A stretch of 64,000 bases of DNA, taken from an uncultured Pseudomonadales bacterium (lineage in GTDB: Bacteria; Patescibacteriota; Microgenomatia; UBA1400; MFAQ01). Positions 9,023 to 62,276 of the stretch are shown one piece after another. The DNA lies in the NCBI GenBank assembly GCA_964348455.1, contig CAYGCQ010000002.1:16121-80120 (forward strand), given 5' to 3'. A program made the translations under genes and the position numbers. The first letter of the stretch is position 1, and every line of letters begins with the position of its first letter. The notes under the pieces were generated by a model. It was not told where the DNA came from and did no database searches. It worked only from the letters and a program-made list of their open reading frames with translations.

Positions 9023-9940
9023 ATGTCTGAATTCGATAAAAGAAAACTAATTGAACAAGTTCTATCCAAAGAACCTCTTCCATATATTAATCCTGAGGTC
9101 TACGAGACGAAACAGGGACTAACATATCTCAAAGAACCGGGTGTTGCTATTATCTCCATTCCCCATGTCGATCTTCGTGGCGCTCAAGGATTTCTTGATG
9201 GTTTTCCTAAAGAGCTTGAATTTTTTAAATATCTGGATGATCCGACTCCTCTTCCTCCGGCTGAAACCCTAGTAAAGTTCGCCGGTCAACTTTGTTATCT
9301 CAGTCACGGTCCAAACAGGACTTTAAACAAAGAGGCTCAAACCTATCTCAAAAACATAAAAGAATCCGGCCACGGTTCGGTCTTGGAGCATAGCAATATT
9401 TCCATTCTTCTCTGGGGTGTTTCCCGAAGTCTCACTCATGAACTAGTACGCCACCGCGCCGGCTTTGGTTTCTCTCAGGTCTCCCAGCGATATGTCGGTG
9501 GCCGTACTTTGCGTTTTGTAGAACGCCCCGAATATTCCGAAGACGAGTTCCTTCATAGGCTATTCGAAGATAGAATTGAAAATACTCAGCATGAGTATGA
9601 ATGGATTACAAATTATCTTTATGAAAAGCAGAAAGAATATTCAGGTGGAATCCTAAGTGCTGAGCATAAAACTGATTTACGAAAAAAGGTTCGTCAATCA
9701 GCTAGGTCGCTCCTCCCCAACGAAACCGAAGCCCCTGTCGTCGTTACTGGCAATGTCCGTGCTTGGAGGCATTTTCTAAGCATGAGGGGTAGTGAGCATG
9801 CCGAAACAGAAATTCGTAGAGCTGCTTTCGAAGTTTATCGCTGTCTGGATCAAGTCGCCCCTATATTATTCGAAGACTTTGAAGTTAAAGTTTTCCCGGA
9901 TAGCACAAATGGTTTATTCACACCCTTTCCGAAGGTTTAA
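9023..9940 (+). CDS. thyX: flavin-dependent thymidylate synthase ThyX
   Basis: ThyX signature ...HELVRHRAGFGFSQVSQRY (RHR...S.RY). Confidence 0.8.
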   Translation: MSEFDKRKLIEQVLSKEPLPYINPEVYETKQGLTYLKEPGVAIISIPHVDLRGAQGFLDGFPKELEFFKYLDDPTPLPPAETLVKFAGQLCYLSHGPNRTLNKEAQTYLKNIKESGHGSVLEHSNISILLWGVSRSLTHELVRHRAGFGFSQVSQRYVGGRTLRFVERPEYSEDEFLHRLFEDRIENTQHEYEWITNYLYEKQKEYSGGILSAEHKTDLRKKVRQSARSLLPNETEAPVVVTGNVRAWRHFLSMRGSEHAETEIRRAAFEVYRCLDQVAPILFEDFEVKVFPDSTNGLFTPFPKV

Positions 9941-18473: not shown

Positions 18474-18508
18474 TCAAATATTGTATTGCATTTATCGCTA
18501 CGAAACAC

Positions 18509-18535
18509 TGTCATCCCTGGCTTGACCAGGGATCC
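18509..18535 (+). repeat. REP-like hairpin repeat, type B (tgtcatccctgg-cttga-ccagggatcc)
   Basis: Conserved TGTCAT/ATCC flanks around a perfect 8-bp stem. Confidence 0.6.
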
Positions 18536-18569
18536 ATCCAATAAGTACCGAATTAGGAATTAATCTAAT

Positions 18570-18595
18570 GGATTCCTGCCTTTGCAGGAATGACA
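18570..18595 (-). repeat. REP-like hairpin repeat, type B, inverted orientation (BIME-like pair with 18509..18535)
   Basis: ggattcctgc-cttt-gcaggaatgaca is the reverse complement of the family consensus. Confidence 0.6.
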
Positions 18596-18665
18596 ATAAA
18601 ATATTTTCTGGATTGCCATGTCACCTTGTTCCTCGCAATGACGATAAACATATATAATATAGATA

Positions 18666-19363: not shown

Positions 19364-20428
19364 ATGAAACTTCGTCATGTTCGACCTTTTCGTGTTGCCA
19401 TCAAATTTTTCTCCACAATCCGTCAACACCTCTTACTAATTTTATTTGCATTCCTACTTGCCACAATCACTTCGCTTGGGGTTTATGGATTTCGCCTTTT
19501 AAATCAGCACAATGTAACACCTCAAGATCTTTTGAGCTTCTTTGGAAAGCCTTCACAAAATCTAGAGAGCACAAATAATATTACCAACTTTCTCTTGCTC
19601 GGAATAAGAGGTGAGGGCGCCGACTCACCCCTACTTACCGACACCATGATTATTTTTTCCTACAATCACGAATCAAAAATACCAACCACAATCAGTATCC
19701 CCAGGGATTTGTGGGTTCCATCCGGCAAGACAAGAATAAATGCGATGTATCAATATGGTGAAGAGGCTAGTCCTGGGGGTGGTATCGCCAGCATTCAAGG
19801 GGCGGTGTTAGAAGATTTAGGTCTGCCAATTCATTACACTGCCGTAGTAGACTTTGAGGTTTTTAGAGAGGCAATAGACCTAGTTGGGGGCATCGATGTA
19901 GATGTGAGTACTGGTTTTACCGACAATGAATTTCCAATACCAGGCAAAGAGAATGCTCTTCCTATTCCCTCACGTTACGAATCGATTACTTTTAACTCCG
20001 GCATTAACCACCTAGATGGAGAAACCGCTCTAAAATTTGTTCGGTCAAGACATTCTTTCGGCGATGAAGGGACAGACTTTGCCAGATCCAGACGTCAACA
20101 GCAAGTAATTTCTGCCTTAAGGCAGAAGATGGTCACCCCCTCATTCTTACTGGATGAAAAAAAAGTCAATTCATTACTGGATATCATTGGTTCAAACCTA
20201 AAAACAAACTTCCCGGCATACCTCTACCCTACTTTGGCCAAGCTAGCTCTCGACACCAAAGATCAAACCATTCAATCCCTGCCTCTTACGAATCTTCCTG
20301 ACGCCGACGGTGTCTCAATTCTTTACAATCCTCCGGTAAGAAACTACTCGGGTCAATGGGTGCTAATTGCCAAAGACAACAACTGGAACGCCCTAAAACA
20401 ATACTTGAAAAACCACCTCTCCCAATAA
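19364..20428 (+). CDS. LytR-CpsA-Psr (LCP) family cell-envelope polymer transferase
   Basis: N-terminal TM, LLLGIRGEGADSPLLTDTMII...ISIPRDLWV LCP core. Confidence 0.8.
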   Translation: MKLRHVRPFRVAIKFFSTIRQHLLLILFAFLLATITSLGVYGFRLLNQHNVTPQDLLSFFGKPSQNLESTNNITNFLLLGIRGEGADSPLLTDTMIIFSYNHESKIPTTISIPRDLWVPSGKTRINAMYQYGEEASPGGGIASIQGAVLEDLGLPIHYTAVVDFEVFREAIDLVGGIDVDVSTGFTDNEFPIPGKENALPIPSRYESITFNSGINHLDGETALKFVRSRHSFGDEGTDFARSRRQQQVISALRQKMVTPSFLLDEKKVNSLLDIIGSNLKTNFPAYLYPTLAKLALDTKDQTIQSLPLTNLPDADGVSILYNPPVRNYSGQWVLIAKDNNWNALKQYLKNHLSQ

Positions 20429-20430
20429 TT

Positions 20431-20478
20431 TGTCATTCCGACCGAACGAAGTGAGTGGAAAAATCTCCCTCCGCCTCC
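20431..20478 (+). repeat. composite repeat, type A (tgtcattccgaccga...gagtgga.aatctccctcc), 3 nt after the LCP stop
   Basis: Same 45-48 nt element also at 50495, 60381 and 46986, with a variant at 51874. Confidence 0.6.
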
Positions 20479-20482
20479 CGCT

Positions 20483-20508
20483 TGTCATCCTCGCGAAAGC
20501 GGGGATCC
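20483..20508 (+). repeat. REP-like hairpin repeat, type B (tgtcatcctcgc-gaaa-gcggggatcc)
   Basis: Flanks conserved; stem carries a G-U compensatory change. Confidence 0.6.
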
Positions 20509-20532
20509 ATGAGCTCTTTTTTCCTTGAGTTC

Positions 20533-22509
20533 CTACCTCACCTTTATCAAGTACGTCCCACCATCTTCAAAAACTTTTACTCCTAGAGATAATATAATAT
20601 CTTCATTTACCTGATACGTAGTTCTCTCATCCTCTCCCACGATAATCCACCCGACGTTATATTCTTTAAGAAGTTCTATTATTTCTACGCTGTTAAAACC
20701 TTCATATATTCCTTTTACATCAGTCTCTCTAGCTGCCACTGGTTCGTACCCACCTCTCCAAAGCCACTCATGAACTCTCCACCCCTGAATAGTAGGCACC
20801 CCGGAAAAAACAGAAACAGCATTAAAGTTTGAGTAACTATCTCCCACCGCTTCCACCATATTTTTACCGTCATAATTTCCCCTTAGATACTTGATTGCAG
20901 CGTATCTTTCCGGCATGCTTGACTCCAACCACCTTTCTCCACTCAAGCCTGAATAGGTATTAAAATTCGCATAGAAATTTGGGAATGCCACTACCGGAAA
21001 CACCATGGTTCCAATGAATATAAATGCTACCGCAAATACGGCAAATGCTCTGTACCACAGAAAAAGTTTTCTTTCTCCATCAAACAACTTACCAAACAGT
21101 GCTCCCGCCAAAAGACCAATCATGATTGAAGCTTGATATGTAAGTTTGAACATTGTGTTTGCTCTTGGGTGATCGGGATAAATATCTTTGGCGTAGACGA
21201 CTTCAGGAATAATGATTAGTAGTAATATACAAATCGCTAATGTCCAGATTGGCAAAGATTTATCTCCTTTTTTCTCAGTCAATACCGCCAGCACACTTAC
21301 TGTTATTCCACCGGTCCACAATACCGCCAGCTCCCAAAGGGGAGTTCTTTCCGTAACCATCTTTATTCCACTCGAAATAGACTGAAAAGTTACAAACCAA
21401 GGTAAGGCCGTCAGTGCCATAAAGAGAAGCATCACTCCGGCAGATTTTAAAAGTTTGACAAACTCTCTATGATCTCTGAGTATCATAATTATTCCCGAAA
21501 CAGTTAGAAGTAGTCCATAAACAGCCACATCCCATGTATTGGTCATCATCATTACTCCAAATAAAATTCCCAGTATCATTTCATCCCATATTTTTCTCGA
21601 ATGAATCCAGTGCAAGAAAATTAAAACAAAAGCCAACACGACCGGCAAATCAATCAGGTGACCATGTAGGTCCGCAACGACGAAAGAGTACCCTGGGAAC
21701 TCGTGAATGGTGTTATGGATAAATCTGGTGGCGTCTGCGTACCAGTAACCCATCAATCCTTTATGATTTAAAAAATACCAAATTACATGGGTATTTCCTG
21801 CCAACACCGTGGCGAATGCTCCGGTTAGTCCTCCAATCATGCCGGACATGTATTTCTTTGTTCCGCTCAAGAAGTATGAAATTGAAAAAGAAATAGAAAG
21901 TGATAGACCGGCTATAAAGGCTAGCATCATGTTATACCCTACGGCCGGGTCGACGCCAAAGTATCGGATAACAATGCTCGCCCAGTAATGCCCAAAAGAA
22001 TAATAGTTTATCGACTTGCCTGCTTGCCACATATCTGCCGCCGGGAGTGTTGGAGACATCAGATATCGGTTTACAAACCCAAAGTCCATAAATTTTTCCA
22101 ATGAGTCAATGTTTGGTAAAAATCCCCTGATATAAGCGATACCAAAAAGACCAACAAAAAATAAATACTCTTCGATGACGATAATTTTAAGAGTAGTTCT
22201 GGAAACGCTAATACTTTTCAATCCGCTTTTAAAGATAATTCCTAAATTTAAAATAATTACACCAGTCGTAGCCAAAATCAAACCCTGGTTTGTGTTGGCA
22301 GCTACACCCAAATTTGCCAGTTCCCAGATGACTAGTCCCGACATCATTGTAGTCAATAGTCTGGAAAGTGGGTAACCATTATCCGGAAGGTTGTGAAACA
22401 ATTTTTTTGTCAAAGGAAAGCTAATAATCTGTAAAAGAAAACTAATCAGATAGACTCTCATTACCAGCGCAATATCAGAGTTAAACATGGTTTTTAAAGC
22501 TTTTAGCAA
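20533..22509 (-). CDS. large polytopic membrane protein, GT-C / DUF2298 (Chlor_Arch_YYY)-like putative glycosyltransferase with a C-terminal extracytoplasmic domain
   Basis: 658 aa, more than 12 TM helices, then a ~170-aa soluble C-terminal domain. FPGYSFVVADLHGHLIDLP resembles the DUF2298 conserved block. Assignment from memory, not searched. Confidence 0.35.
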   Translation of the reverse strand: MLKALKTMFNSDIALVMRVYLISFLLQIISFPLTKKLFHNLPDNGYPLSRLLTTMMSGLVIWELANLGVAANTNQGLILATTGVIILNLGIIFKSGLKSISVSRTTLKIIVIEEYLFFVGLFGIAYIRGFLPNIDSLEKFMDFGFVNRYLMSPTLPAADMWQAGKSINYYSFGHYWASIVIRYFGVDPAVGYNMMLAFIAGLSLSISFSISYFLSGTKKYMSGMIGGLTGAFATVLAGNTHVIWYFLNHKGLMGYWYADATRFIHNTIHEFPGYSFVVADLHGHLIDLPVVLAFVLIFLHWIHSRKIWDEMILGILFGVMMMTNTWDVAVYGLLLTVSGIIMILRDHREFVKLLKSAGVMLLFMALTALPWFVTFQSISSGIKMVTERTPLWELAVLWTGGITVSVLAVLTEKKGDKSLPIWTLAICILLLIIIPEVVYAKDIYPDHPRANTMFKLTYQASIMIGLLAGALFGKLFDGERKLFLWYRAFAVFAVAFIFIGTMVFPVVAFPNFYANFNTYSGLSGERWLESSMPERYAAIKYLRGNYDGKNMVEAVGDSYSNFNAVSVFSGVPTIQGWRVHEWLWRGGYEPVAARETDVKGIYEGFNSVEIIELLKEYNVGWIIVGEDERTTYQVNEDIILSLGVKVFEDGGTYLIKVR

Positions 22510-23779
22510 TTATTTCTGCTACCTCTCGACCCATTTTCACCGCATAGTTTGTCCCTCTATCAAAGGGGTACACCATGCTCATATTCGCCAAGTAGACGTT
22601 ATCAGTAATTTTTTGACTCGGTATATGCTTAGAATAGTTTACAGGGAATACAGGTTGAGCGAAAGGCTTTCGGAATAAGTATGAGTTCTTAATTAATTTT
22701 TTGTCAAAGTTATTGTTAATTTTTTTTATAAAAGGTAAGTACAACTTGAGTAGCTCTACTTTGGTCATATTCAATTGAGCATTATCATCAGGTAAATAGT
22801 TTCCAAGGTAGAGCAATCTATTATTCCCATACATTTTTTTATCAATCATGTTCGTATGTTCTACTGCTACCAAAAATGGAAAATTATTCTCCAAAATATT
22901 TAGCCAATACCCCGATAGTACTTTTCTGGATATCTCCAAAATAAGTGTTTGGCCCCATAGATAATTTAGTTTGGGGAACTTCAGTCCCTTAATAAGCTTT
23001 TCGGCAATTGGCGCAGGCGTCGTAACCACTACGGCATCAAACTCCTCGCCGTTAACAACAATTTTTTTGTTGGAACTCTTATTATCAAGCAATTTGTCAT
23101 CCTCGCGAATGCTGGGATCCACAGTCTTAATTTTCTTGACTACAGTGTTCAACCTTATCTCTCCACCATTCTTTTCAATAAATGTTTCCAGTTTCTCTAC
23201 AAACTCATCAAACCCACCCTCAAAGTAGCCGAGATTCTTTGTTCTTTTTGCTACTCTACTCCAAAACCAAGCTAAATTTACCACATCTACATAAGGTCCG
23301 AACTTGGCTGAGAGTAGTTTTTCCCAAATTAACTCATATCCTTCTCGACCTATTAATCGTGGAAGTGCCTCTACTGCTTTGTATCTTTCCAAGAACAGAC
23401 CATTTGGAATAATCTTTAGCACAAATAGCCCAACACCCATTCTTAGCCTTGACCATAGCGAGAGCTGGGAAAATCTTAAAAGTGAAAGGGGGGAGTCAAG
23501 TCGTACCTCTTTACTATTAAGAAAGCTGGAAGTTATCGGGTTTTTTATTAAAATCTTCGCATTCACTTTTTTCGCAAGGGAAAAAATATCCTTATCATTA
23601 GTAAAAATGTGATGATAGAAAACTTCTAAGTTCCACTTCCATTTTCCAGAATTAAATCCCCGTGCAAGACCTCCTGCTTTTTTGTCTGATTCGAATACAA
23701 CTGAGGAGATATTGTTGTCGGCTAAGTAAGCCGAGCAACAAAGTCCGGTGATGCCTCCACCAATTATCGCAACTCTCAT
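22481..23779 (-). CDS. FAD-dependent flavoenzyme, UDP-galactopyranose mutase (Glf)-like
   Basis: N-terminal Rossmann VAIIGGGITG...E.....GGLAR; YHHIFTNDKDIF matches the UGM GAHIFHTNDKYIW block. Overlaps the downstream membrane protein by 29 nt. Confidence 0.45.
   Translation of the reverse strand: MRVAIIGGGITGLCCSAYLADNNISSVVFESDKKAGGLARGFNSGKWKWNLEVFYHHIFTNDKDIFSLAKKVNAKILIKNPITSSFLNSKEVRLDSPLSLLRFSQLSLWSRLRMGVGLFVLKIIPNGLFLERYKAVEALPRLIGREGYELIWEKLLSAKFGPYVDVVNLAWFWSRVAKRTKNLGYFEGGFDEFVEKLETFIEKNGGEIRLNTVVKKIKTVDPSIREDDKLLDNKSSNKKIVVNGEEFDAVVVTTPAPIAEKLIKGLKFPKLNYLWGQTLILEISRKVLSGYWLNILENNFPFLVAVEHTNMIDKKMYGNNRLLYLGNYLPDDNAQLNMTKVELLKLYLPFIKKINNNFDKKLIKNSYLFRKPFAQPVFPVNYSKHIPSQKITDNVYLANMSMVYPFDRGTNYAVKMGREVAEIIAKSFKNHV
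23095..23120 (+). repeat. REP-like type B element embedded in frame inside the Glf-like CDS (encodes ...VDPSIREDDK... on the minus strand)
   Basis: tgtcatcctcgcgaatgctgggatcc with both family flanks. Confidence 0.5.
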
Positions 23780-23785
23780 CTTTCT

Positions 23786-25198
23786 TTATAGAGCTAAGAG
23801 TATTCCTATGATAGCTAGCATGAGTCCTCCGCCAAATGCGGCTATACCGGGGAAGTCTAAGATTCCAGTCTCAGGAAGTACTTCTCGTTGAGCTACAGCA
23901 TCTGTGGGAGCTACTGTTCCTCCGTCAACGATCTCATCTGTGGGAGCTACTGTTCCTCCGTCAACGATCTCGTCCGTTGGCGCAGCCGTAATCTCGTCCG
24001 TTGGTGCAGCCGTAATCTCATCAGTTGGAGCTGTTGTTGGGCAAACACAGGAACCTGCATCCAAACAGGCTGCTTTTCTACAGGTTTCTGTTCCGGTGTC
24101 ACAAGTTAGACCTGTGGTGCATTCGGAGTCGTCAGTGCATGACTCATTACAAGCAACTACGGACTTGACTGCAAGATCTTTGTCAGCTGTCTTTACGGTA
24201 TCGCCATATGAAAGTTCACTTGTATTTGTAATCACAGTCCCATTCACTGCCGCGTTTGAAACTTTGACCCTAAAAGTAAGCGTCTTTGACGCTCCTACAG
24301 CTAAAGTGATTCCAGAACAGGTAACTTTGTAGTTTGAGTTTGAAAAAGTACAGTCAGTGGTAGTATCTACAAATGTTAACAGATCTTGGTTCTCACCATC
24401 CAATGTATCTGAAACGGTTACATTTGTGGCTGGAGCAGTGCCATCATTTTTAATTACTAAAGCGTATATAAAAGTTTGGTTACGAGAAACTGTTGTGATG
24501 TCGGTTGTGGAACCTTCTTTAAAAGCTTTTTTAGTAATAGACACATCTACCACTTGGCATACAGCAGTTGCAGCACACTGTTTAGTAGTTGCTACTCCGC
24601 ACGAATCCGTACAAGTAGTGATCACCGATGCTGCCTGACCACAAGTAGTAGGACAATCGGGGGAACAAGTTACTTCAGCAGTAGCTACACAAATTGCAGT
24701 TGCAGACACTGAACAGGCCGCGGAAGTTTCGAAACAGATAGTACTGCCATCGGCTTTTTTGCATCTACCGTCGGTTTCGTCGCAGGTAAGTCCAGTAGCA
24801 CACCCGGAGGTTGAAGTACAAACTCCACATTCTGAGGGTTTTGTCGGAGGAGTGGGAGTTGTGGTTGGTGCGGTTGGACATTTAGTCATATCCTTCGTCC
24901 ACGCACCTCCTACGCTAGGGCAACACCAATTTTCATTTCCACAAACCTCTACTCGTCCGGTAGTGGTACAGACGGAATCGCTGGAAGTGCCATCAGACTC
25001 AGGAGGTGTACAGCTTTGTAAGAGGTTCGGTGTCGTTGGGTTCGGACAATGCTCCTCGCAGGTAGCAGCTCTGGAACCTGTTGGGACTATTCCCTGACCT
25101 GTACTAATTCTGTATGAAACAAAGATTGCTGCAGCTGCAATAAGAGCAATAAGAGCTATTGTTATGATTGCGACTATGTTTTTTCTTTTGTTATTCAT
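23786..25198 (-). CDS. Cys-rich, Thr-rich cell-surface protein with a DUF11-like repeat domain and a C-terminal LPETG sorting signal
   Basis: N-terminal TM; many Cys; C-terminal TAAPTDEI repeats; ends VLPETGILDFPGIAAFGGGLMLAIIGILLAL. Confidence 0.7.
   Translation of the reverse strand: MNNKRKNIVAIITIALIALIAAAAIFVSYRISTGQGIVPTGSRAATCEEHCPNPTTPNLLQSCTPPESDGTSSDSVCTTTGRVEVCGNENWCCPSVGGAWTKDMTKCPTAPTTTPTPPTKPSECGVCTSTSGCATGLTCDETDGRCKKADGSTICFETSAACSVSATAICVATAEVTCSPDCPTTCGQAASVITTCTDSCGVATTKQCAATAVCQVVDVSITKKAFKEGSTTDITTVSRNQTFIYALVIKNDGTAPATNVTVSDTLDGENQDLLTFVDTTTDCTFSNSNYKVTCSGITLAVGASKTLTFRVKVSNAAVNGTVITNTSELSYGDTVKTADKDLAVKSVVACNESCTDDSECTTGLTCDTGTETCRKAACLDAGSCVCPTTAPTDEITAAPTDEITAAPTDEIVDGGTVAPTDEIVDGGTVAPTDAVAQREVLPETGILDFPGIAAFGGGLMLAIIGILLAL
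23899..24018. repeat. intragenic tandem repeats: 36-bp unit x2 (perfect) then 24-bp unit x2 (1 mismatch), encoding the TDEITAAP / TDEIVDGGTVAP stalk repeats
   Basis: Direct repeats read from sequence, directly upstream (in gene sense) of the LPETG signal. Confidence 0.8.
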
Positions 25199-25210: not shown

Positions 25211-27190
25211 TTAGTTAGCTGTGGCAACACAAACCCCTAAAGCATCAGGAGTTTTTGAGGATACTTTGCATTCAAACCCAGTCGGGCACTTAATTCCAGC
25301 GACTCCTGCACAAGTTGTTTGAATTGAAGCGGTAGAGGGCGCAGTGCTTACATAAGCCTCGAATTTATATGTTCCAGTTTTTGAAATAGTGTAGTCGTAG
25401 TATGAAGTTAGTTTGGTGGTTGTGTTTAATAGTCCGGAAGCAACAACTTCTACAGTGGAACTTGTTCCCTGAGTAATTCTAAACTTAGCTCTTAAATTCG
25501 CATTGTTTGATCGAACCGCTAATCTAATCTTGTCGTTAATTTTTATTTTGTTTCTTTGGTCCAGGGTCATCGGTGTGGTGTTAAATGTTCCATCAGTTTT
25601 TTGTGAGAACAAGCTAATCTCCATACAAGCACCTGGATTAGCTACGACACACACTTTGGTGCCAGGAACTGTTCTTTTTGTTCCGCAGTTGCTAGTTTGA
25701 TTTACTGTGGCAGTGGTACAAACTGTATTTGCATTAGGTGTCCAACTGGAAACTGTACAGCCTCCCCCTCCACCTTTTGTAGGAGTAGCAGTTACCCCAC
25801 CACCTCCTGTAGAACCGCCGCCACAACCCGAAGTTGACACTACGCATTTGCCACCTGAAATAGCTTCACCTTGGTGACAGCAAAATCTATCTTGGGTTGT
25901 AGCTGTTGCGGTGCTTTTACATGTAAATGCACCAGAGGTATAAGTTGTAGAACAGCAAAGTCCTGGGCTACATACGTCCGTGTACCCTCCGGCGGGTTTG
26001 CATGCTTTAGAGGTAGCACTGTATTCAGGATTTGCTGTAGAACAGCAAAGAGTTGGTGTGCCTACTGAGTTATTGCACGTAGATGCCCCAGCGGTTCCAG
26101 CCGGCAAATTACAATCAACACCCGCTGGACAAGTAGATTTAGACGGATTAGCCACACAAACAGCCCTCGCATTACATCCATCATATGTACCATTTAAACA
26201 ACATGTTAGTTTCATCGTTCCAGGCAAGCTAGAGTTATTAGGAGTACTGCTAAGAGGTGTTGTGCAACTTACTGTTTTTGTATCTTTTCCATATTCACAT
26301 GTTCCGGAAGGAGTTTGAACACATGTTCCTCCGATACACCTATCAGGACTAGTGCACCCAGAATCATTACCACAAATCGTATTGCGACACACTCCACCAA
26401 TAAATTTTTGATCCGCTTCACAACTTTCTGCGGGTGGTGGTGCTGCTGTGGCTGTCCCAGTGAAACACTTTCCACTTAACAAAGGTACTCCAGGGCTACA
26501 ACAGTACTGAGGGGTTGTTGAAGTTGATGAGGAGTAGCACTGTGTGCCTCCGGACTCTGCTCCAAAAGAACATTGTAAATTATTGCCAATAGAGTTACAT
26601 AACTTTTTAGCTGTTGACGGTGTCGGTGTTTTTGCGGGAGTGCCTGTAGCTTGTACACCTCCACAGCCAGATACTTCTGGGTGTCCAATACAACTTGTTT
26701 TTGTAGCATTACAGCTGAAACAGGGGCCGGGGCAGTTTGAAGAAGTACATGTGTATCCTGTTCCGTATCCAGTCGGTGTGGGGGCAATTGGTTTACAAAC
26801 ACCATTAACGCATTTCTCTTTTCCTGCTTTGCACTGAGAGGGGTTGTTTGTACAACCGCCTGCTGCAAACGGCTGAAGTGGTCCGGTCAAGGCTATTCCA
26901 CCTCTGGAAGCCAGCTGATTAGAAACATAATAAGCAGCTCCAGCTACACCCACTACTAGTAGTAAGGCAATCATTCCTAATGCAATTTGTTTAAATTTAT
27001 TTTTCGGTTTCTTCTCTGGCCATTGGATCTCAGGGGTAGTAGGTGATGTTGGTGTTATCGTGGTCGTGGTGGTGGAATCTGGAGTAGTTGTAGTGGTCGT
27101 GGTTAGAGGAGCTCCCAGCGGTTCTTGATTCGGCATCGGAGGATTAAATGGCTGACCGGAAGTTTGATTCGAAAGATTTTGTTCGTCCAT
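25211..27190 (-). CDS. very Cys-rich surface protein (about 60 Cys), N-terminal TM anchor, Thr-rich; paralog of 28244..30208; no C-terminal sorting signal
   Basis: Shares the N-terminal module AGAAYYVSNQL.SR.GIA.TGPLQPFAAGGCTNNP.QCKAGKE.CVNGVCKPIAPTPTGYGTGYTC with the paralog. Confidence 0.65.
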   Translation of the reverse strand: MDEQNLSNQTSGQPFNPPMPNQEPLGAPLTTTTTTTPDSTTTTTITPTSPTTPEIQWPEKKPKNKFKQIALGMIALLLVVGVAGAAYYVSNQLASRGGIALTGPLQPFAAGGCTNNPSQCKAGKEKCVNGVCKPIAPTPTGYGTGYTCTSSNCPGPCFSCNATKTSCIGHPEVSGCGGVQATGTPAKTPTPSTAKKLCNSIGNNLQCSFGAESGGTQCYSSSTSTTPQYCCSPGVPLLSGKCFTGTATAAPPPAESCEADQKFIGGVCRNTICGNDSGCTSPDRCIGGTCVQTPSGTCEYGKDTKTVSCTTPLSSTPNNSSLPGTMKLTCCLNGTYDGCNARAVCVANPSKSTCPAGVDCNLPAGTAGASTCNNSVGTPTLCCSTANPEYSATSKACKPAGGYTDVCSPGLCCSTTYTSGAFTCKSTATATTQDRFCCHQGEAISGGKCVVSTSGCGGGSTGGGGVTATPTKGGGGGCTVSSWTPNANTVCTTATVNQTSNCGTKRTVPGTKVCVVANPGACMEISLFSQKTDGTFNTTPMTLDQRNKIKINDKIRLAVRSNNANLRAKFRITQGTSSTVEVVASGLLNTTTKLTSYYDYTISKTGTYKFEAYVSTAPSTASIQTTCAGVAGIKCPTGFECKVSSKTPDALGVCVATAN

Positions 27191-28243: not shown

Positions 28244-30208
28244 CTAAAGCGCAAGTAATATCCCCACAATTGTAAGTATAAGTCCTCCTCCAAAGGCGGC
28301 CACTCCGGCGAAGTCAAAAATTCCTGCTTCGGGTAATGCTGTTGGCCTAGGAGCTCTCGTTGCTGGGACTCTGGTTGGAACAGAAGCTGTTCGTTCTGTT
28401 GGTTTCGGGCACACACAGGAGGTTATATTTGAACATTCATTGTTTCTGCACTTATTCGTTTCCGTGTCGCATAACAGCCCATCTCCACATTCAGTATCAG
28501 AAGTGCAGGTGTGGTTACAACTCACTATGGTGCTGACTAATAAATCCTTTTCTGCTTTAAGAATTTTTCCCAAATAAGTTACAGTTGCAATATTTTTAAT
28601 TACTGTACCATTGACTACCGCGTCCGAAACGGTTGATCTAAAAGAAAACTCCTTTGTTTCACCCGGATCAAGTGAGGTGTTGCAGACAACCATTTTCTCC
28701 GGCGACGAGTACTCACAGACCGCCTCTTTATCAAGGAAGGTCAGTTTATCTTGGTTTAATCCTGTTAGGGGGTCGGTGATTTTTACCCCATCTGCCTTAT
28801 CAGCCGCATTGTTTGATACTTGAATCGTATATACGAATGTTTGATTTTTTGAGACAGTATCAATTTCCTGAGTCAAAGAGTAGTTTCCTGATGAGTTATC
28901 CGCTTCATCTTGATATGCCTTTTTGTCTATCGAAACATTTGATTCACAGGACTGTGTATTACATGCCTTTTCGGAATTTCCTCCGTCAACCTCATCACAG
29001 TTGAGAGCTCCACCACAACTTCCTTCAGTACAAGTTCTGGTTTGAGTTCCACCTCCACAAGACTTAGTACAATCACTCCAGTCAGACCAAATAGGTGGAG
29101 TTAATACACAAGTTGTCGCGGCCGTAAAATTTCCTTTACATCTATTGTCTTGTCCAAAAACAAGATTTGCCGCCGGTAGCATCAAGTATCTAGCTACGAT
29201 GGTGTAACTTCCTGCCGCCGGTATATTGTAAATATATTCAAATTTTCCGGTTGTCGAATTTAAAATTGTCGGTCCCCAATTTGCATCGTTAATTTTTATG
29301 TCTACTTGGGTAGTATTTTTCGCTGTCACTGCAAATTTTATACGTGAACCTGGCTTTGCTTCAGCTGATAGTTCAGCAGAAGTAAGATTTTTCCAAGACC
29401 CATCTGTTTGTTGAATGGAATAGTCAATGGCGGTACATGAGACAACTGGCGTTGGTGTTGGTGTGGGAGTTTTTGTCGGCGAAGGGGTAGTTGTAGTCTT
29501 CGTTGGTGTCGGTGTAGATGTCTTAGTTGGCTTAGGTGTTGTAGTACTGCCTCCGGAAGAGACACACCCATTACCGCTTGGATTACATACGTATCCCACT
29601 GCACAGCAAGTCATTGCTTTTCCTGTCATATTGATACACCAAGATCTGCCTTGATTCCCACAAGAAATTCGAGTATCGCTTCTACACTCATAACCGGTAC
29701 AAGCATCACCACCTAGACAGTGACAGTCTGCAGCTGGGCATGTTGACCCACAATGGTTAATTACATTTCCATTTGCATCTCTCGGGGCTCCTTCATCGAT
29801 TGGTAGTGCGATGTTTTGTCCTGCTATCCCAGTGCTTGAAACACCCGCACAGCCGAGGGAAATACAACTTGTTTTAGCGGCATTACACTTGAAACACGGT
29901 GATGGACAGTTCGTGGTTGTGCATGTATACCCTGTTCCATAACCTGTGGGTGTAGGGGCAATAGGTTTGCAAACACCATTCACACATGTTTCTTTTCCTG
30001 CTTTACACTGAGCTGGATTGTTTGTACAACCACCAGCAGCAAAAGGCTGAAGAGGTCCAGTTGGGGCTATTCCTGCTCTGGAAGACAACTGATTAGAAAC
30101 ATAATAAGCCGCACCGGCAATTACCACCATCAAAACAGTCGCAATTATGCCTAATAGCAATCGTCGCCTTCGGACTTTATTTTGTTTCAATGACTCTTCT
30201 CCGCTCAT
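28244..30208 (-). CDS. Cys-rich surface protein with N-terminal TM, PT-rich linker, TSP1-like motif, DUF11-like domain and a C-terminal LPEAG sorting signal
   Basis: WSDWSDCTKSCGGGTQTRTC motif; C-terminus ALPEAGIFDFAGVAAFGGGLILTIVGILLAL. Confidence 0.7.
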   Translation of the reverse strand: MSGEESLKQNKVRRRRLLLGIIATVLMVVIAGAAYYVSNQLSSRAGIAPTGPLQPFAAGGCTNNPAQCKAGKETCVNGVCKPIAPTPTGYGTGYTCTTTNCPSPCFKCNAAKTSCISLGCAGVSSTGIAGQNIALPIDEGAPRDANGNVINHCGSTCPAADCHCLGGDACTGYECRSDTRISCGNQGRSWCINMTGKAMTCCAVGYVCNPSGNGCVSSGGSTTTPKPTKTSTPTPTKTTTTPSPTKTPTPTPTPVVSCTAIDYSIQQTDGSWKNLTSAELSAEAKPGSRIKFAVTAKNTTQVDIKINDANWGPTILNSTTGKFEYIYNIPAAGSYTIVARYLMLPAANLVFGQDNRCKGNFTAATTCVLTPPIWSDWSDCTKSCGGGTQTRTCTEGSCGGALNCDEVDGGNSEKACNTQSCESNVSIDKKAYQDEADNSSGNYSLTQEIDTVSKNQTFVYTIQVSNNAADKADGVKITDPLTGLNQDKLTFLDKEAVCEYSSPEKMVVCNTSLDPGETKEFSFRSTVSDAVVNGTVIKNIATVTYLGKILKAEKDLLVSTIVSCNHTCTSDTECGDGLLCDTETNKCRNNECSNITSCVCPKPTERTASVPTRVPATRAPRPTALPEAGIFDFAGVAAFGGGLILTIVGILLAL

Positions 30209-39186: not shown

Positions 39187-39915
39187 ATGGATCTTACGGA
39201 AAGACAAATATTAATCATAAAAACCATTGTCGAAGAGTTCACTCAGACAGCCGAGCCCGTTGGTTCTGTTACGCTGGAGAACAAGTATCGACTTGGTGTA
39301 TCCCCAGCCACTCTGAGGAATGAGATGGCAGCTCTTGAAAATCAGGGTTTGCTTTCCCAGCCCCATGCTTCTTCCGGTAGAGTTCCTACCCCCATGGCCA
39401 TCAAGTTTTATGTCCACGAGTTAATGAAAGAGAAGCAGTTATCGGTTGCCGAAGAGGTAAATGTTAAGTCTCGAGTCTGGGATCATCGTCACAACAGAGA
39501 TGATCTGATGAGAGAAGCCACCAAAGTGCTGGCAGAGAGAACAAAAACTCTTTGTGTCGCGGCTACAGATGAGGGTTTAACTTATCACTCCGGCTATGCC
39601 AATATTTTTAACTCTATCGAGTTTGAAAGCCATCTTGATACCACTCGTGAAATCTTCTATTTGTTGGATCAGCAACAGCGTCTCATGGATATGTTTAGTC
39701 GAGCTTCAGGAAACTCTCCCATCCATATTTTAGTTGGCGATGAAATCGGCATAAGTCTTTTTAAGCCGGTCAGTTGTGTCTTTGCCGACATTCACATTGG
39801 CGATCGACGTGGCAGCCTTGGAATCATTTCTTCTAGTCGTCAGGAGTATGATAAAAATATTCCCTTTGTCAGATATATTGCTAATTTAGTCAATCAAATT
39901 GCACAAGAATGGTAA
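39187..39915 (+). CDS. hrcA: heat-inducible transcription repressor HrcA (short form)
   Basis: N-terminal LTERQILIIKTIVEEFTQTAEPVGS wHTH; position upstream of grpE-dnaK-dnaJ. Confidence 0.8.
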   Translation: MDLTERQILIIKTIVEEFTQTAEPVGSVTLENKYRLGVSPATLRNEMAALENQGLLSQPHASSGRVPTPMAIKFYVHELMKEKQLSVAEEVNVKSRVWDHRHNRDDLMREATKVLAERTKTLCVAATDEGLTYHSGYANIFNSIEFESHLDTTREIFYLLDQQQRLMDMFSRASGNSPIHILVGDEIGISLFKPVSCVFADIHIGDRRGSLGIISSSRQEYDKNIPFVRYIANLVNQIAQEW

Positions 39916-40445
39916 AAAAAACAAAAACCCACATCAACAATCCTGATCATCTTGAAACAGCTCAGGAATCACACATTGAAACTCTTGTGAAATTGAAAAA
40001 TCTTCAAGAAAAGTTTGTAGAGCTTGAGGAAAGAGTGGATAGTACCGAAGAAAAATACAAAAGGGTACTGGCCGACTATCAAAATCAATCTCGACGTCAC
40101 AAAGATCAGGAGTCTTCGATTGTTAGAATGGCCTCAGCCATAATAATAGAAAAACTTTTACTAAGTTTAGACTCACTTCAGTTAGCTCAATCTCATCTCA
40201 AGGATAAAGGTCTTCAAATGGTCATTGACCAGTTTCTTTCCGTTTTTTCTGATGAAGGCTTGAGTCAAATCGAGTCCGATGACCAAGATTTTAATCCTTT
40301 AACGATGGACTGTACCGAAGTGGTGCCGGGGAAGAAAGATGTGGTTGTCGAAACTATTTCAACAGGCTATTATCTTCATGACAAAGTTCTTAGACCAGCC
40401 AAAGTCAAGGTCGGTTCCGGCGAAGTTAATACTACAAAACAATAA
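39909..40445 (+). CDS. grpE: nucleotide exchange factor GrpE
   Basis: Coiled-coil N-terminus, C-terminal ...VLRPAKVKVG; overlaps the hrcA stop (ATGGTAA). Confidence 0.8.
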   Translation: MVKKTKTHINNPDHLETAQESHIETLVKLKNLQEKFVELEERVDSTEEKYKRVLADYQNQSRRHKDQESSIVRMASAIIIEKLLLSLDSLQLAQSHLKDKGLQMVIDQFLSVFSDEGLSQIESDDQDFNPLTMDCTEVVPGKKDVVVETISTGYYLHDKVLRPAKVKVGSGEVNTTKQ

Positions 40446-40449
40446 CCAC

Positions 40450-40475
40450 TGTCATTCCTGCGAAGGCAGGAATCC
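40450..40475 (+). repeat. REP-like hairpin repeat, type B (tgtcattcctgc-gaag-gcaggaatcc), 5 nt after the grpE stop
   Basis: Perfect 8-bp stem, conserved flanks. Confidence 0.6.
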
Positions 40476-40530
40476 ATCAAATAAATACATTATTCTGCGT
40501 TAAAAATTAATTAAAAATCAATAAAATAAT

Positions 40531-46185: not shown

Positions 46186-47160
46186 ATGGAAGACAAAACC
46201 CAGTTTATATCAGCCAAAAAAATCTTCGATTCCGCATCCTCATTTATTGTTGCTCTACCCCCTGACCCCTCTTTAGACATTGTTTCTTCCGGCCTTAGTC
46301 TCCATCTAGCCCTAATTGCTTCCGGGAAAAAATCTCAAATTGGATGTGGCACTCCAGTTCACATTGATCCCAAAATTATCGGTGCTCAGGAAATAGCGGA
46401 CAGTATTGGTGCAAAGAATCTAATTATCTCCTTTGATTATCACGAAGATGATCTCGAAAAAGTAGACTATGATGTTCGTCCTGATGGAAAATTTTATCTA
46501 ATGGTCAAGCCAAAATCTGGCGCTCCAGTTCCAGATGTCAGTAATGTAAAGTATTCCTACTCCGGGGCTCAAGCAGATTTGGTCATAACTTTAGGCATTA
46601 ATTCTCTGGAGGAACTAGGAAAGATATACGCCGACGAAAAAAACTTTTTAGATGAAGGTAAGATTTTAAGTTTAAACATTACCCCCTGGCCTGTCCAGTT
46701 CACCAAAAACATTCTCCACCAAACATCCACCTGCTTTTCAGAGCTTGTAGCGGAACTAATTGAGAAAGTGGATTTAAAAATGTCAGGTGATGCCGCCAGA
46801 AACTTATTACAGTTCATATACGAAGAAACAAAAAATCTTACGAGCCCAAAGATGACAGCCGGAACCTTTTCCTCAATCGCTTATCTAATGAGAAATGGAG
46901 CTAAATTACCAAGCCAGCAGACTTATACTCCCAGGTTTGCTCAGCCAACCTTTTTTGAAGCCCCTCACGCACCGCTCAGCACCTCTGTCATTCCGACCGA
47001 AGTGGAGGAATCTCAAACCACCAATATAGGGGACGAAGAAAATATTCCCATGCCACAGGAAGAGAATAAGCCTTACGTCATACCTCCTTCCAAGCTAACC
47101 GAACAGCCGGTGCCAAACGACTGGACCAAGCCCAAGATCTTCCGCGCAGGCGACCTGTAG
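46186..47160 (+). CDS. degenerate DHH/NrnA-like protein (DHH motif not conserved), with a low-complexity C-terminal tail that reads through a repeat element
   Basis: N-terminal SFIVALPPDPSLDIVSSGLSLHLAL...GK resembles the NrnA architecture but has no H..PD.D. Confidence 0.35.
   Translation: MEDKTQFISAKKIFDSASSFIVALPPDPSLDIVSSGLSLHLALIASGKKSQIGCGTPVHIDPKIIGAQEIADSIGAKNLIISFDYHEDDLEKVDYDVRPDGKFYLMVKPKSGAPVPDVSNVKYSYSGAQADLVITLGINSLEELGKIYADEKNFLDEGKILSLNITPWPVQFTKNILHQTSTCFSELVAELIEKVDLKMSGDAARNLLQFIYEETKNLTSPKMTAGTFSSIAYLMRNGAKLPSQQTYTPRFAQPTFFEAPHAPLSTSVIPTEVEESQTTNIGDEENIPMPQEENKPYVIPPSKLTEQPVPNDWTKPKIFRAGDL
46986..47022 (+). repeat. type A repeat (short variant) embedded in frame in the 3' region of 46186..47160
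   Basis: tgtcattccgaccgaagtggaggaatctcaaaccacc translates as SVIPTEVEESQTT. Confidence 0.55.
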
Positions 47161-48138: not shown

Positions 48139-48267
48139 TTGTCTCCCGCCAAAGCGGGACTATCAAGTCATTTGAGGAGTAAATAGAGCACATCCCGGAT
48201 GGGGTATCTTCTTTTTTCTTCTCAAGACCTGTGGTGGAGCCAGATACAAATAAGAAAGGAACAGGAT

Positions 48268-50487: not shown

Positions 50488-50494
50488 TTTATTT

Positions 50495-50540
50495 CGTCAT
50501 TCCGACCGAGCAATACGAGTGGAGGAATCTCCCTCCACCC
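50495..50540 (+). repeat. type A repeat directly 3' of pnp
   Basis: cgtcattccgaccgagcaatacgagtggaggaatctccctccaccc. Confidence 0.6.
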
Positions 50541-51873: not shown

Positions 51874-52282
51874 CGTCATTGCGAATCTCGGTACTCCGAG
51901 CTGTGGCAATCTCCCTCCACCTCATTCACACCAACGTTCCATGCAAATCATCCCATTTTGGATTCATCCTTTCAACAAATCATTCCTCCTCTTCCTCGAC
52001 CAAGATTTTATTTGCTTTTCCCTCTGAATTGCTTCAATCATTACGTCGAAAATTCGTAGTAAACAAGTTTGTTGAGTGAATATTCTTTTGTAAATCCTTC
52101 CGAAACCTTAATCTTATGTTCCCAAGATCTTCTTAGTAAATCCTTTGTTACTCCTACATAAATAGTAGTGTTGTATTCGTTAGTCATAATATAAATACTT
52201 GGAGTTTTAACCATCGATTTATTTAATTTATCTTTCGTGGATTGAGATTGCCACGTCGTAAATACACTCCTCGCAATGACGG
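51874..52282. mobile_element. about 410-bp unit bounded by imperfect inverted repeats (cgtcattgcga...gtggcaatctc; 51874-51921 and 52239-52282, related to the type A repeat) enclosing a frameshifted GIY-YIG gene
   Basis: Inverted repeats read directly from sequence; inferred MITE-like or small element. Confidence 0.3.
51964..52214 (-). pseudogene. GIY-YIG nuclease superfamily (COG2827-like, about 83 aa) gene disrupted by a 1-nt frameshift near 52041
   Basis: Frame 1: MVKTPSIYIMTNEYNTTIYVGVTKDLLRRSWEHK...KLVYYEFST*. Shifted frame continues ...MIEAIQREKQIKSWSRKRRNDLLKG* (GIY, YIG, R, E and REKQIK motifs present). Confidence 0.6.
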
Positions 52283-54722: not shown

Positions 54723-55113
54723 TTTATCTCCTCTTGAATTATAGGTTTAACGTGCACGAAACTGAGCTATATTATCCTATAGCTAATTCAAGATTGCTGG
54801 ACAAACAGCGGACTTGATATCTCAGATCTCAATGCACTATTTAAGCATTTTGAGGAAGAAAAAGTAATAGCCTTAGATCTTGCCAAAAAGCTTAGAGAAA
54901 ATATCATCGAGAAGTTGCAAAAACCATAGTCAGTCTTCTTTTGTGCCTAAAACAGATTCATGCTATAATAACCGTCAGTCCACGGAAACGTTGTCGAAGT
55001 GATTTGTGAGAATTGTAGAATCTGTTAGATTTTCGATCCCAACCCTTAGAAACTTATCCCGTAAATTAGGATTTTGGCGTGTTTCCTCGCCTAAAGCTAA
55101 ATGTATTGGTCAT

Positions 55114-55140
55114 TGTCATTCCCGACTTGATCAGGAATCT
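55114..55140 (+). repeat. REP-like hairpin repeat, type B (tgtcattcccgac-ttga-tcaggaatct)
   Basis: One stem mismatch relative to the copy at 60428. Confidence 0.55.
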
Positions 55141-55198
55141 ATATAGATGACCCAGCATTCAGTTACAATATTATTAGGAAAATTAATTACAAAAGATT

Positions 55199-59757: not shown

Positions 59758-60375
59758 ATGAAGACCGTTGGTCAAATAATCAAATCGGCTAGGCAAAAAC
59801 GCAGTCTTAGCGTAGATCAGCTTTCTTCGCTTACAAAAATAGATTCCAAGTATATTGCCGCGCTCGAACTTGATCATTACTCAGATCTCCCTTCAGAAAC
59901 ATTTGCCAAGGGTTTTATTAGAAATCTCAGTCTAAGGCTCGATCTAAACCCGAATGAACTCATCGCTATTTTTAGAAGGGATTTTCGACAACCGGACAGA
60001 GTCGGTCCAAAAACAATACATAGAAAAACTTTTTCCGGATTTCCACCCCAGTCTCTCCCCTTTATTTTTGGCGGTTTGGTCTTCGTAGTTTATTTAGTTT
60101 TTCAGTTTAGAGCCATTCTTACTCCTCCAAAACTCGAAATAACTCGGCCATTAAATGGCGCGGTTCTTGTATCCCCAATCGAAATTGAAGGGGATACGGC
60201 TATAGATGCCAATATATATATAGGTGATGATACCCAGGTTAAGCCTGACACTGAGGGTCATTTCTTGGCCAGGATAAATATACCTGTGGGGGAGACGGTG
60301 CTGGAGATAAAATCCACCAATCGATTTGGTAGAACGACGGATAAAAATATCTCGGTCACCATAATATCCAAATAA
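59758..60375 (+). CDS. rodZ: RodZ-like cytoskeleton protein (N-terminal XRE-type HTH, TM, C-terminal domain)
   Basis: GQIIKSARQKRSLSVDQLSSLTKIDSKYIAALE HTH, then a TM helix. Confidence 0.55.
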   Translation: MKTVGQIIKSARQKRSLSVDQLSSLTKIDSKYIAALELDHYSDLPSETFAKGFIRNLSLRLDLNPNELIAIFRRDFRQPDRVGPKTIHRKTFSGFPPQSLPFIFGGLVFVVYLVFQFRAILTPPKLEITRPLNGAVLVSPIEIEGDTAIDANIYIGDDTQVKPDTEGHFLARINIPVGETVLEIKSTNRFGRTTDKNISVTIISK

Positions 60376-60380
60376 CCGTT

Positions 60381-60426
60381 TGTCATTCCGACCGAATGTA
60401 GTGAGTGGAGGAATCTCACACCACCC
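60381..60426 (+). repeat. type A repeat 6 nt after the rodZ-like stop
   Basis: tgtcattccgaccgaatgtagtgagtggaggaatctcacaccaccc. Confidence 0.6.
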
Positions 60427-60427
60427 T

Positions 60428-60454
60428 TGTCATTCCCGACTTGATCGGGAATCT
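60428..60454 (+). repeat. REP-like type B hairpin (tgtcattcccga-cttga-tcgggaatct) immediately after the type A copy; same A+B arrangement as at 20431-20508
   Basis: Perfect 8-bp stem. Confidence 0.6.
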
Positions 60455-60496
60455 ATACAAATAACTCATTATCAACTTTTTTGGTATGATGAATTA

Positions 60497-61969: not shown

Positions 61970-62131
61970 ACGAACCTCCTGTTTTAATTTGAATTTACCC
62001 TATAATTATACCACCATATGTCTAGGTTTTCCCTGCCTACAACCACACCCTTCCTCACCCCAAACGTCACCCCCAATTCCTAGCCTCAAAAACTACCCCA
62101 TAGCTTGCTATTCTACTTTTTAAAAATAACT

Positions 62132-62158
62132 TGTCATTCTGAACTTGATTCAGAATCC
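62132..62158 (+). repeat. REP-like type B hairpin (tgtcattctgaa-cttga-ttcagaatcc)
   Basis: Perfect 8-bp stem with compensatory base changes relative to other copies. Confidence 0.6.
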
Positions 62159-62276
62159 AGAAATGCCTGGATGTCGGATCGGGTCCGGCATGTCACAACA
62201 CTTTGATATGAAATTACAGATATATCTTCGCTCGTAATTACATAAGTCATTATGAGCTTGGTATAATTTGACTGAA

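Follow-up and report, generated by a model that had tools for sequence, protein, structure and literature searches.

A 64-kb window of contig CAYGCQ010000002.1 (the whole stretch of DNA that was analyzed, 64,000 nucleotides) contains a gene for a flavoenzyme in which a short hairpin repeat is read in frame as part of the protein. The repeat is most probably a nonautonomous, CGTC-tagged repetitive extragenic palindromic (REP) element, of the superfamily that includes the Neisseria repeats NTS/dRS3, the Ssn-related motifs (SRM), and the Rickettsia palindromic element RPE-6. In a Microgenomates/Collierbacteria-like bacterium of the candidate phyla radiation (CPR), it was taken up as coding sequence into the gene for a PRK07233-type flavoenzyme. 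Intragenic CGTC-tagged REPs resembling Rickettsia palindromic elements (RPEs) are a known kind of event, and the present case adds a bacterial group to their range. Either the insertion took place fairly recently or the copy has been homogenized with the genomic pool of repeats; it is near consensus and now decaying.

A preceding sequence-only reading of the window had placed a 26-nt type B element at positions 23095 to 23120 inside the open reading frame (ORF) at 22481 to 23779, on the opposite strand and without a break of frame, and this was confirmed. The 26-mer (TGTCATCCTCGCGAATGCTGGGATCC, + strand) belongs to a full unit at 23093 to 23122, the 30 nt of which make up exactly ten codons (V220 to K229) in antisense within the ORF. 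The translation reads through the unit without a stop (...IKT-VDPSIREDDK-LLDNKSSNKK-IVVNGEEF...). The unit comprises TTGTCAT, an 8-bp stem, a 4-nt loop, and a CCA tail, with the conserved flanks TT...CCA(T). It is a genuine copy of a dispersed hairpin repeat: positions 23095 to 23120 are identical to the intergenic sequence at 20483 to 20508 at 24 of 26 positions, with two mismatches, and none of 100 dinucleotide-preserving shuffles gave any such match. A strict hairpin search overlooks the in-gene copy, which has a mismatch and a G-T pair in its stem, and a covariance model was used instead. Built from 14 other short-hairpin copies, with the in-gene copy deliberately excluded, the model scored positions 23094 to 23121 at 28.8 bits (E = 1.3e-5). 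The degenerate SRM motif (PMC11893778), searched as HGTCWYN(0-2)YYVSBRHN(0-5)WNVSBRGN(0-2)RNCYNB, has only two matches in the window, at 20483 to 20510 and 23095 to 23122, against a chance expectation of 0.12 matches on average in a first-order Markov simulation. Searched at gathering thresholds, Rfam gave no family match anywhere in the window.

The in-gene copy is degenerate, carrying two substitutions relative to the consensus, both of which are nonsynonymous. A G-to-T change destroys one stem pair and replaces Arg by Ser, and a T-to-C change replaces Met by Val. Folded as single-stranded DNA (ssDNA), the copy reaches -2.3 kcal/mol (z = -0.44) versus -6.4 kcal/mol (z = -2.3) for the consensus. 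Direct reading of the 30-mer shows it to be stop free in five of its six reading frames, which accounts for the ease with which the repeat is tolerated; its insertion at a structurally permissive site leaves the gene open.

The host protein was recognized in Pfam by Amino_oxidase (E = 2.4e-21), NAD_binding_8, and DAO only and by NCBIfam PRK07233 at 352.9 bits (cutoff, 252), and its best PDB folds were protoporphyrinogen oxidase, phytoene desaturase, and monoamine oxidase. An initial identification as a Glf-like enzyme (UGM) was rejected, as Pfam gave no GLF match and the protein is PRK07233/amine oxidase-like instead. Homologues number in the thousands, the closest of them, at up to 69 to 74% identity, being found in metagenome-assembled genomes (MAGs) of Collierbacteria, Woesebacteria, Microgenomates, and the "Patescibacteria group".

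Alignment with orthologues showed the segment to be an insertion. The loop between the invariant residues G206 and F247 has 26 to 27 amino acids in 73 of 120 orthologue clusters and 42 in the query protein, and the median orthologue length is 416 amino acids versus 432 in the query. The element supplies 10 of the 16 extra loop residues. The adjoining codons encode LLDNKSSNKK, which is absent from orthologues with a canonical loop; a search of the window and of all fetched loci gave no match that would point to a repeat origin of these extra 9 to 10 codons. An AlphaFold2 model of the host protein has a mean pLDDT of 90.5, and its sole low-confidence stretch comprises residues ~220 to 240 (block means of 51 and 62, with values of <50 at residues 228 to 234). 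Residues 221 to 240 join the strands at 217 to 219 and 240 to 242. The model places the element-encoded residues at the tip of a surface β-hairpin in the FAD-binding domain, and ORF and predicted fold are intact despite the insertion. Together with the orthologue loops, this supports the expectation from sequence that the palindrome would lie in frame in a surface loop of a Rossmann-fold flavoenzyme.

The same turn is occupied by element-derived peptides in 22 of the 120 orthologues, and at least six subtypes are represented. The peptides take the forms DP(R/S)(I/L)REDD (type B), (R)xTETRND (type E), FPIRSGMT, WIPxxxxND or WIHPFGYQRPDQVRDD, SFDFAQDD or LDYARDD (type A-like), SFRPNEESGE (type A in the opposite orientation), and RSDLxxxKVRPL. 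Their origin from elements was confirmed on the DNA for six loci (L001, L002, L003, L005, L011, and L019). In L001, the closest relative of the query, a decayed type E element lies in the first loop and a perfect element, identical to a copy 6.6 kb away, in the second; in L003, both loops contain the same shared stretch of ~51 nt, which is part of a longer composite element. The sequence-only reading had proposed that the nucleotide similarity would be due to chance if orthologues without any REP family carried the same residues, but the orthologues with DPR(I/L)REDD carry the 30-nt element, and their genomes contain the repeat family. The in-gene unit of P0004 (locus L081) and P0011 (L083) is TTGTCATCCTCGCGAATGCGGGGATCCAT, that of P0005 (L082) differs in having the loop GAAG, and the three loci carry units with 27 to 30 of 30 identical positions. 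Comparison of the query with these three loci showed identity at 9 to 10 of 10 third codon positions inside the element versus 0.38 to 0.47 in the rest of the gene. In a neighbor-joining tree calculated with the loops masked, the carriers of type B fall into three clades, each with noncarrier sisters. The contrast in third-codon identity and the split among clades rule out an old, neutrally evolving shared insertion; what remains is independent or recent insertion, homogenization with the repeats present in the genome, or nucleotide-level constraint.

It is unlikely, though consistent with part of these data, that the insert is ancient, was shared by descent in a clade of orthologues, and has been kept by selection on a charged DPRIREDD loop or on a DNA or mRNA hairpin acting, for example, as a pause or processing site. 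The occurrence of the same peptide at the same β-hairpin turn in four orthologues would fit such a history, as would the identity of the element at the nucleotide level, which exceeds that of the surrounding gene as it would under purifying selection on nucleotides. The distribution of carriers over three clades with noncarrier sisters argues against it, as does the presence in other lineages of quite different subtypes, or of a plain loop of 26 to 27 amino acids, at the same site. It is likewise opposed by the destruction of a stem pair and the nonsynonymous nature of both substitutions in the query, by the apparent shortened remnants in P0003 and P0010, and by the occurrence of the same 30-mer in proteins of no relation, where other frames are used and the element lies in either orientation.

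CGTC-tagged REPs were defined by the tag CGTC (often TGTC, with TGTC or CCTC allowed as variants), a stem of 8 to 9 bp starting with A-T, a loop of 4 to 5 nt, and a CCA tail; family CGTC-1 includes Neisseria dRS3 and RPE-6 of Rickettsia conorii, and CGTC-4 includes RPE-4 (PMC3733652). Intragenic units were reported, mostly from R. conorii, no dedicated transposase was known, and the CPR was not among the five phyla listed (Di Nocera, De Gregorio & Rocco 2013, PMC3733652). Type B has every defining feature of CGTC-1. The unpaired terminal tag of the in-gene copy is the variant TGTC (23095 to 23098). The consensus stem, ATCCTCGC/GCGGGGAT, starts A-T/T-A and has eight pairs (seven Watson-Crick and one G-T), seven of which are retained in the query copy, with one mismatch. 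The loop has 4 nt (GAAT in the gene; GAAA, GAAG, or AAAG elsewhere), and the CCA tail follows the stem in the in-gene copy and in 10 of 14 aligned copies. Like CGTC-1 elements, the repeats are multicopy and dispersed, numbering 15 in 64 kb; most lie a short way 3' of ORFs, a minority are read through inside ORFs, and several subtypes coexist in one genome. Two things set the present case apart from that survey: the host is a CPR/Patescibacteria (Microgenomates-like) genome, and one enzyme loop holds different subtypes across many orthologues.

The comparison with Rickettsia drawn in the sequence-only reading proved to be closer than an analogy, as the CGTC superfamily takes in RPE-4 and RPE-6 as well (PMC3733652). 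The repeat resembles RPEs in being a decaying palindrome that lies in frame in a conserved gene, is tolerated at the surface (by the predicted structure), and is absent from most orthologues. The insertion of RPEs in frame in protein-coding genes was reportedly described by Ogata et al. in 2000 and 2002. Classical RPE-1 is ~100 to 150 bp long and encodes 30 to 50 residues, whereas the unit here has 30 nt and encodes 10 residues; and, unlike Rickettsia, the host belongs to a free-living or episymbiotic CPR lineage, its genes matching those of Collierbacteria/Microgenomates MAGs. GTAG-tagged REPs and REPINs are mobilized by RAYTs (IS200/IS605-like Y1 transposases). They share with the present repeats a short hairpin, an orienting unpaired tag, a location 3' of ORFs, and a presumed action as ssDNA, but membership in this group was rejected because the tag is TGTC or CGTC in all copies, not GTAG, and the associated gene encodes a GIY-YIG nuclease. 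No RAYT (Y1 transposase) gene was noticed in the window, though no systematic Pfam scan of the ORFs of the window was made. Identity as a MITE (miniature inverted-repeat transposable element) was also rejected, as there are no terminal inverted repeats beyond the hairpin and the unit has just 30 nt. Literature searches for REP or palindromic elements or MITEs in CPR/Patescibacteria found nothing relevant, and a search for cyanobacterial small dispersed repeats found only a REPIN paper.

The wider GTCAT-hairpin family has 15 members in the window, as shown by a pattern search and a later, more specific one (Table 1). They share a common plan, (T/C)GTC followed by an AT-initiated stem, a loop, the second stem arm, and C(C/T)A, and fall into type B (4-nt loop), a subtype with a 5-nt loop, type A (longer, imperfect hairpin), and type E (long loop, GTCATTGCGA...GGCAATC). 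Among the 14 short-hairpin copies, 98% of the stem cells are paired, and four of seven pairs change on both sides, which amounts to covariation. The CGTC form of the tag was seen in the E-type copies, in the copy at 50496, and in those of L001. Six repeats start 4 to 9 nt past a stop codon (at 20432, 40451, 50496, 51875, 52280, and 60382). The GTCAT strand lies on the + strand in 12 of the 15 copies regardless of the orientation of neighboring genes, and throughout most of the window the + strand has a negative GC skew; the strand preference may represent a replication-strand bias, as for hairpin elements acting on ssDNA. In L083, the 3' end of the flavoenzyme gene runs into a repeat copy (9314 to 9341), which encodes the final residues of the protein.

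Table 1. Positions in the window of the flavoenzyme gene, its in-gene repeat, the other repeat copies, and the GIY-YIG gene
Feature	Position	Strand	Remarks
Host gene, 432-aa FAD-dependent oxidoreductase, intact ORF	22481..23779	-	Pfam Amino_oxidase; NCBIfam PRK07233
In-gene hairpin repeat (CGTC-1/SRM type, type B)	23093..23122	+	TTTGTCATCCTCGCGAATGCTGGGATCCAC; - strand codons V220-DPSIREDD-K229
Ten further loop codons, L230-K239 (LLDNKSSNKK), A/T-rich, adjoining the element	23063..23092	-	
5-nt-loop copy (CGTC-2-like)	18508..18536	+	Covariance model
4-nt-loop copy	18569..18596	-	Covariance model
E-type copy (GTCATTGCGA...GGCAATC)	18611..18642	-	
Type A copy, directly upstream of type B copy, 4 nt past stop of ORF 19364-20428	20432..20465	+	
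Closest intact type B copy, between convergent genes	20483..20510	+	TGTCATCCTCGCGAAAGCGGGGATCCAT; SRM match
4-nt-loop copy, 6 nt past stop of ORF 39909-40445	40449..40476	+	Covariance model
Type A copy, sense, in frame within gene 46186-47160	46985..47022	+	
Type A copy, 9 nt past stop of ORF 48199-50487	50494..50531	+	
E-type copy, left inverted repeat beside GIY-YIG gene	51875..51911	+	
Small single-domain GIY-YIG gene, ~83 aa reconstructed, apparently frameshifted	51964..52214	-	PF01541
E-type copy, right inverted repeat beside GIY-YIG gene	52246..52280	-	
5-nt-loop copy	55113..55141	+	Covariance model
Type A copy then 5-nt-loop copy in tandem, 7 nt past stop of ORF 59758-60375	60380..60455	+	
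5-nt-loop copy	62131..62159	+	Covariance model

The search for the same element in other coding genes, suggested by the sequence-only reading, yielded a second case in the window and several unrelated genes in metagenome contigs. Within the window, the type A copy at 46985 to 47022 encodes VIPTEVEESQTT (residues 268 to 279) in a variable linker of a conserved 324-amino-acid protein. This protein has 1,373 homologues at E values of ≤0.001, the nearest of which (57% identity) is without the segment. Its linker is disordered, the protein ends in a DWxKPKIFR motif, and neither Pfam nor NCBIfam assigned it to a family. A scan of metagenome contigs with the exact type B pattern found at least 120 loci, with 124 copies among the matches listed. 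Fifteen of these 124 copies lie in long ORFs, defined as having at least 40 open codons to either side of the repeat and no fewer than 150 overall; both orientations are represented, as are four of the five frames that lack a stop. Among the genes clearly affected are those for a YchF GTPase, a RarA/MgsA ATPase, a GT2-like glycosyltransferase, once more the flavoenzyme, and two proteins of very large size.

In the form of ssDNA, the Neisseria repeat NTS (CGTCATTCCCGCGMAVGCGGGAATCYRG) and SRM are cut by the Ssn nucleases (cd10448), small GIY-YIG proteins of a single domain whose genes typically have the repeats on both sides (NTS-ssnA-NTS); clustering in intergenic regions and control of natural transformation have been reported for this system (PMC11893778, Nat Commun 2025). 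Neither intragenic copies read in frame nor Patescibacteria came up in a term search of the text of PMC11893778. The sequence of NTS is nearly the same as that of the present repeat, and the SRM motif fits both the in-gene copy and the intergenic copy at 20483 to 20510. A small single-domain GIY-YIG gene in the window has inverted hairpin repeats on both sides, in an arrangement that is like that of an insertion sequence and resembles NTS-ssnA-NTS. The gene was found by tblastn with a GIY-YIG protein from L121, two motif regular-expression scans having missed it because of its frameshift and yielded nothing useful. With its two frames joined, the protein matched PF01541 at 55.4 bits over profile positions 3 to 77 of 78; NCBIfam gave a weak match to a group I intron endonuclease, and PDB gave weak matches to UPF0213/UvrC, neither of which placed the protein in the Ssn clade. 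It may be regarded as a candidate Ssn-type partner of the repeats. Among the metagenome loci, GIY-YIG genes adjoin a type B copy in L136 and a related hairpin in L191, and in L183 and L205 they lie between inverted copies of a different repeat, CCTTCGACAAGCTCAGGAC. That repeat also enters a third loop of the flavoenzyme (query residues 41 to 49), where 16 of the 120 orthologues, but not the query, have an insert of 5 to 6 amino acids, PS(T/A)xSGQ, derived from it; such inserts lie at 2207 to 2248 in L081 and 8127 to 8168 in L083, and repeat copies occur in L183, L160, L092, and L100.

A second alternative is that the loop acts as a landing pad undergoing concerted evolution, in which a repeat, once seeded, is a preferred target and cleavage of ssDNA by an Ssn-type nuclease with repair from genomic copies refreshes or replaces the copy in the gene. 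This would explain why the element stays near the consensus in a gene whose third codon positions are saturated, and also why subtypes turn over at a single site: type B, type E plus type B, and type A-like elements all occur at this turn within one clade (P0004, P0011, P0020, and P0026). The type A-like elements of L005 and L002 bring no net gain in loop length, suggesting replacement, and the presence of the composite stretch in two loops of L003 and the flanking of GIY-YIG genes by repeats are likewise in keeping with it. However, the sample is small and was partly chosen for carrying the peptide; independent insertion combined with selection for permissive loops explains the same data; and the query copy is decaying rather than refreshed. 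As an account of the query copy, the landing pad is improbable. A chance or convergent resemblance of an ordinary loop sequence, for which nothing speaks beyond the shortness of the element, was rejected as exceedingly improbable on the basis of the shuffles, the score under a covariance model lacking this copy, the expected frequency of the SRM motif, which was nevertheless observed at the in-gene copy, and the identical 30-mers in orthologues and more than 120 metagenome contigs.

Several observations weigh against the insertion of a CGTC-tagged REP as the explanation or limit what it covers. P0010 is the sister of P0005 (87% identity), and this filled/empty pair differs by a net 15 nt only and has no clean insertion boundaries; a simple, clean insertion is therefore not the whole history. 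That the nucleotides of the element are so well conserved among orthologues could reflect selection on the hairpin or the peptide and not recency. A hot-spot test, in which the covariance model was run on 32 orthologous loci, some of them fetched because they carry the peptide, placed 5 to 6 of 16 hits inside the flavoenzyme gene; with the peptide-selected loci removed, 2 of 11 hits lay in the gene, so that no targeting is claimed, and the hot spot may be pure survivorship. Unlike the genes in NTS-ssnA-NTS, the GIY-YIG gene of the window is frameshifted, and its flanking repeats are of the long-loop E type, not type B, and do not match the strict SRM regular expression.

In the flavoenzyme gene, the CGTC-tagged REP adds the ten antisense codons V-DPSIREDD-K. 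The resulting peptide would have no function of its own and would persist as a tolerated scar of selfish DNA because the loop permits it. The family would spread or be maintained via ssDNA hairpin intermediates and small GIY-YIG (Ssn-type) nucleases. Different family members would recur in the same loop through repeated events of insertion or replacement, with selection for permissive sites acting as a filter. A more far-reaching proposal, which must be regarded as tentative and rather doubtful, is that the CGTC/SRM repeats of CPR and Ssn-type GIY-YIG nucleases form an active system that reseeds, replaces, and homogenizes copies at the same protein loops by landing-pad gene conversion. Under this proposal, REP invasion would be a regular source of diversity in the length and sequence of CPR loops and not a rare accident, and CCTTCGACAAGCTCAGGAC, a repeat of no relation that flanks GIY-YIG genes of its own, would do likewise at another loop of the enzyme.

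The phenomenon of protein-coding palindromes, classically described in Rickettsia, and the system of CGTC-tagged REPs and NTS-Ssn repeats are both extended here to the CPR. The recurrent occupation of one loop by many subtypes and the finding that these genomes have GIY-YIG genes flanked by repeats go somewhat beyond earlier work (PMC3733652, PMC11893778), and the link between repeats and GIY-YIG genes offers a testable handle on the movement of CGTC repeats, which the 2013 survey had left open. With at least six subtypes at the β-hairpin turn of one enzyme and copies ranging from perfect to almost erased, the example is an unusually clean one. Peptides such as DPRIREDD, RNTETRND, WIPGQARNDD, FPIRSGMT, and PSTSSGQ in CPR proteins should be treated as scars of selfish DNA in annotation, alignment, and modeling, and repeat-derived peptides mark structurally permissive loops.

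The flavoenzyme gene lies in a conserved order of genes encoding a DUF11/CLIPPER surface protein, the flavoenzyme, and a DUF2298 membrane protein. The synteny of the flavoenzyme and DUF2298 genes extends to every close relative examined and suggests a functional unit, and the pairing with a membrane protein and a surface protein suggests a possible role of the host enzyme in the cell envelope. The flavoenzyme ORF overlaps the longest (TTG-start) reading of the downstream DUF2298 ORF (20533 to 22509) by 29 nt. The ORF at 23786 to 25198, which encodes the Cys-rich DUF11/CLIPPER surface protein, contains tandem repeats of 36 nt at 23881 to 24032, two copies of which are identical (23899 to 23970); these encode APTDEI(T/V)... 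units near the C terminus of the protein, which likely has a C-terminal membrane anchor. A direct repeat of 267 nt with 80% identity (26687 to 26953 and 29861 to 30127) is common to two genes for large, Cys/Thr-rich secreted proteins, 25211 to 27190 and 28244 to 30208, which are apparent paralogues.

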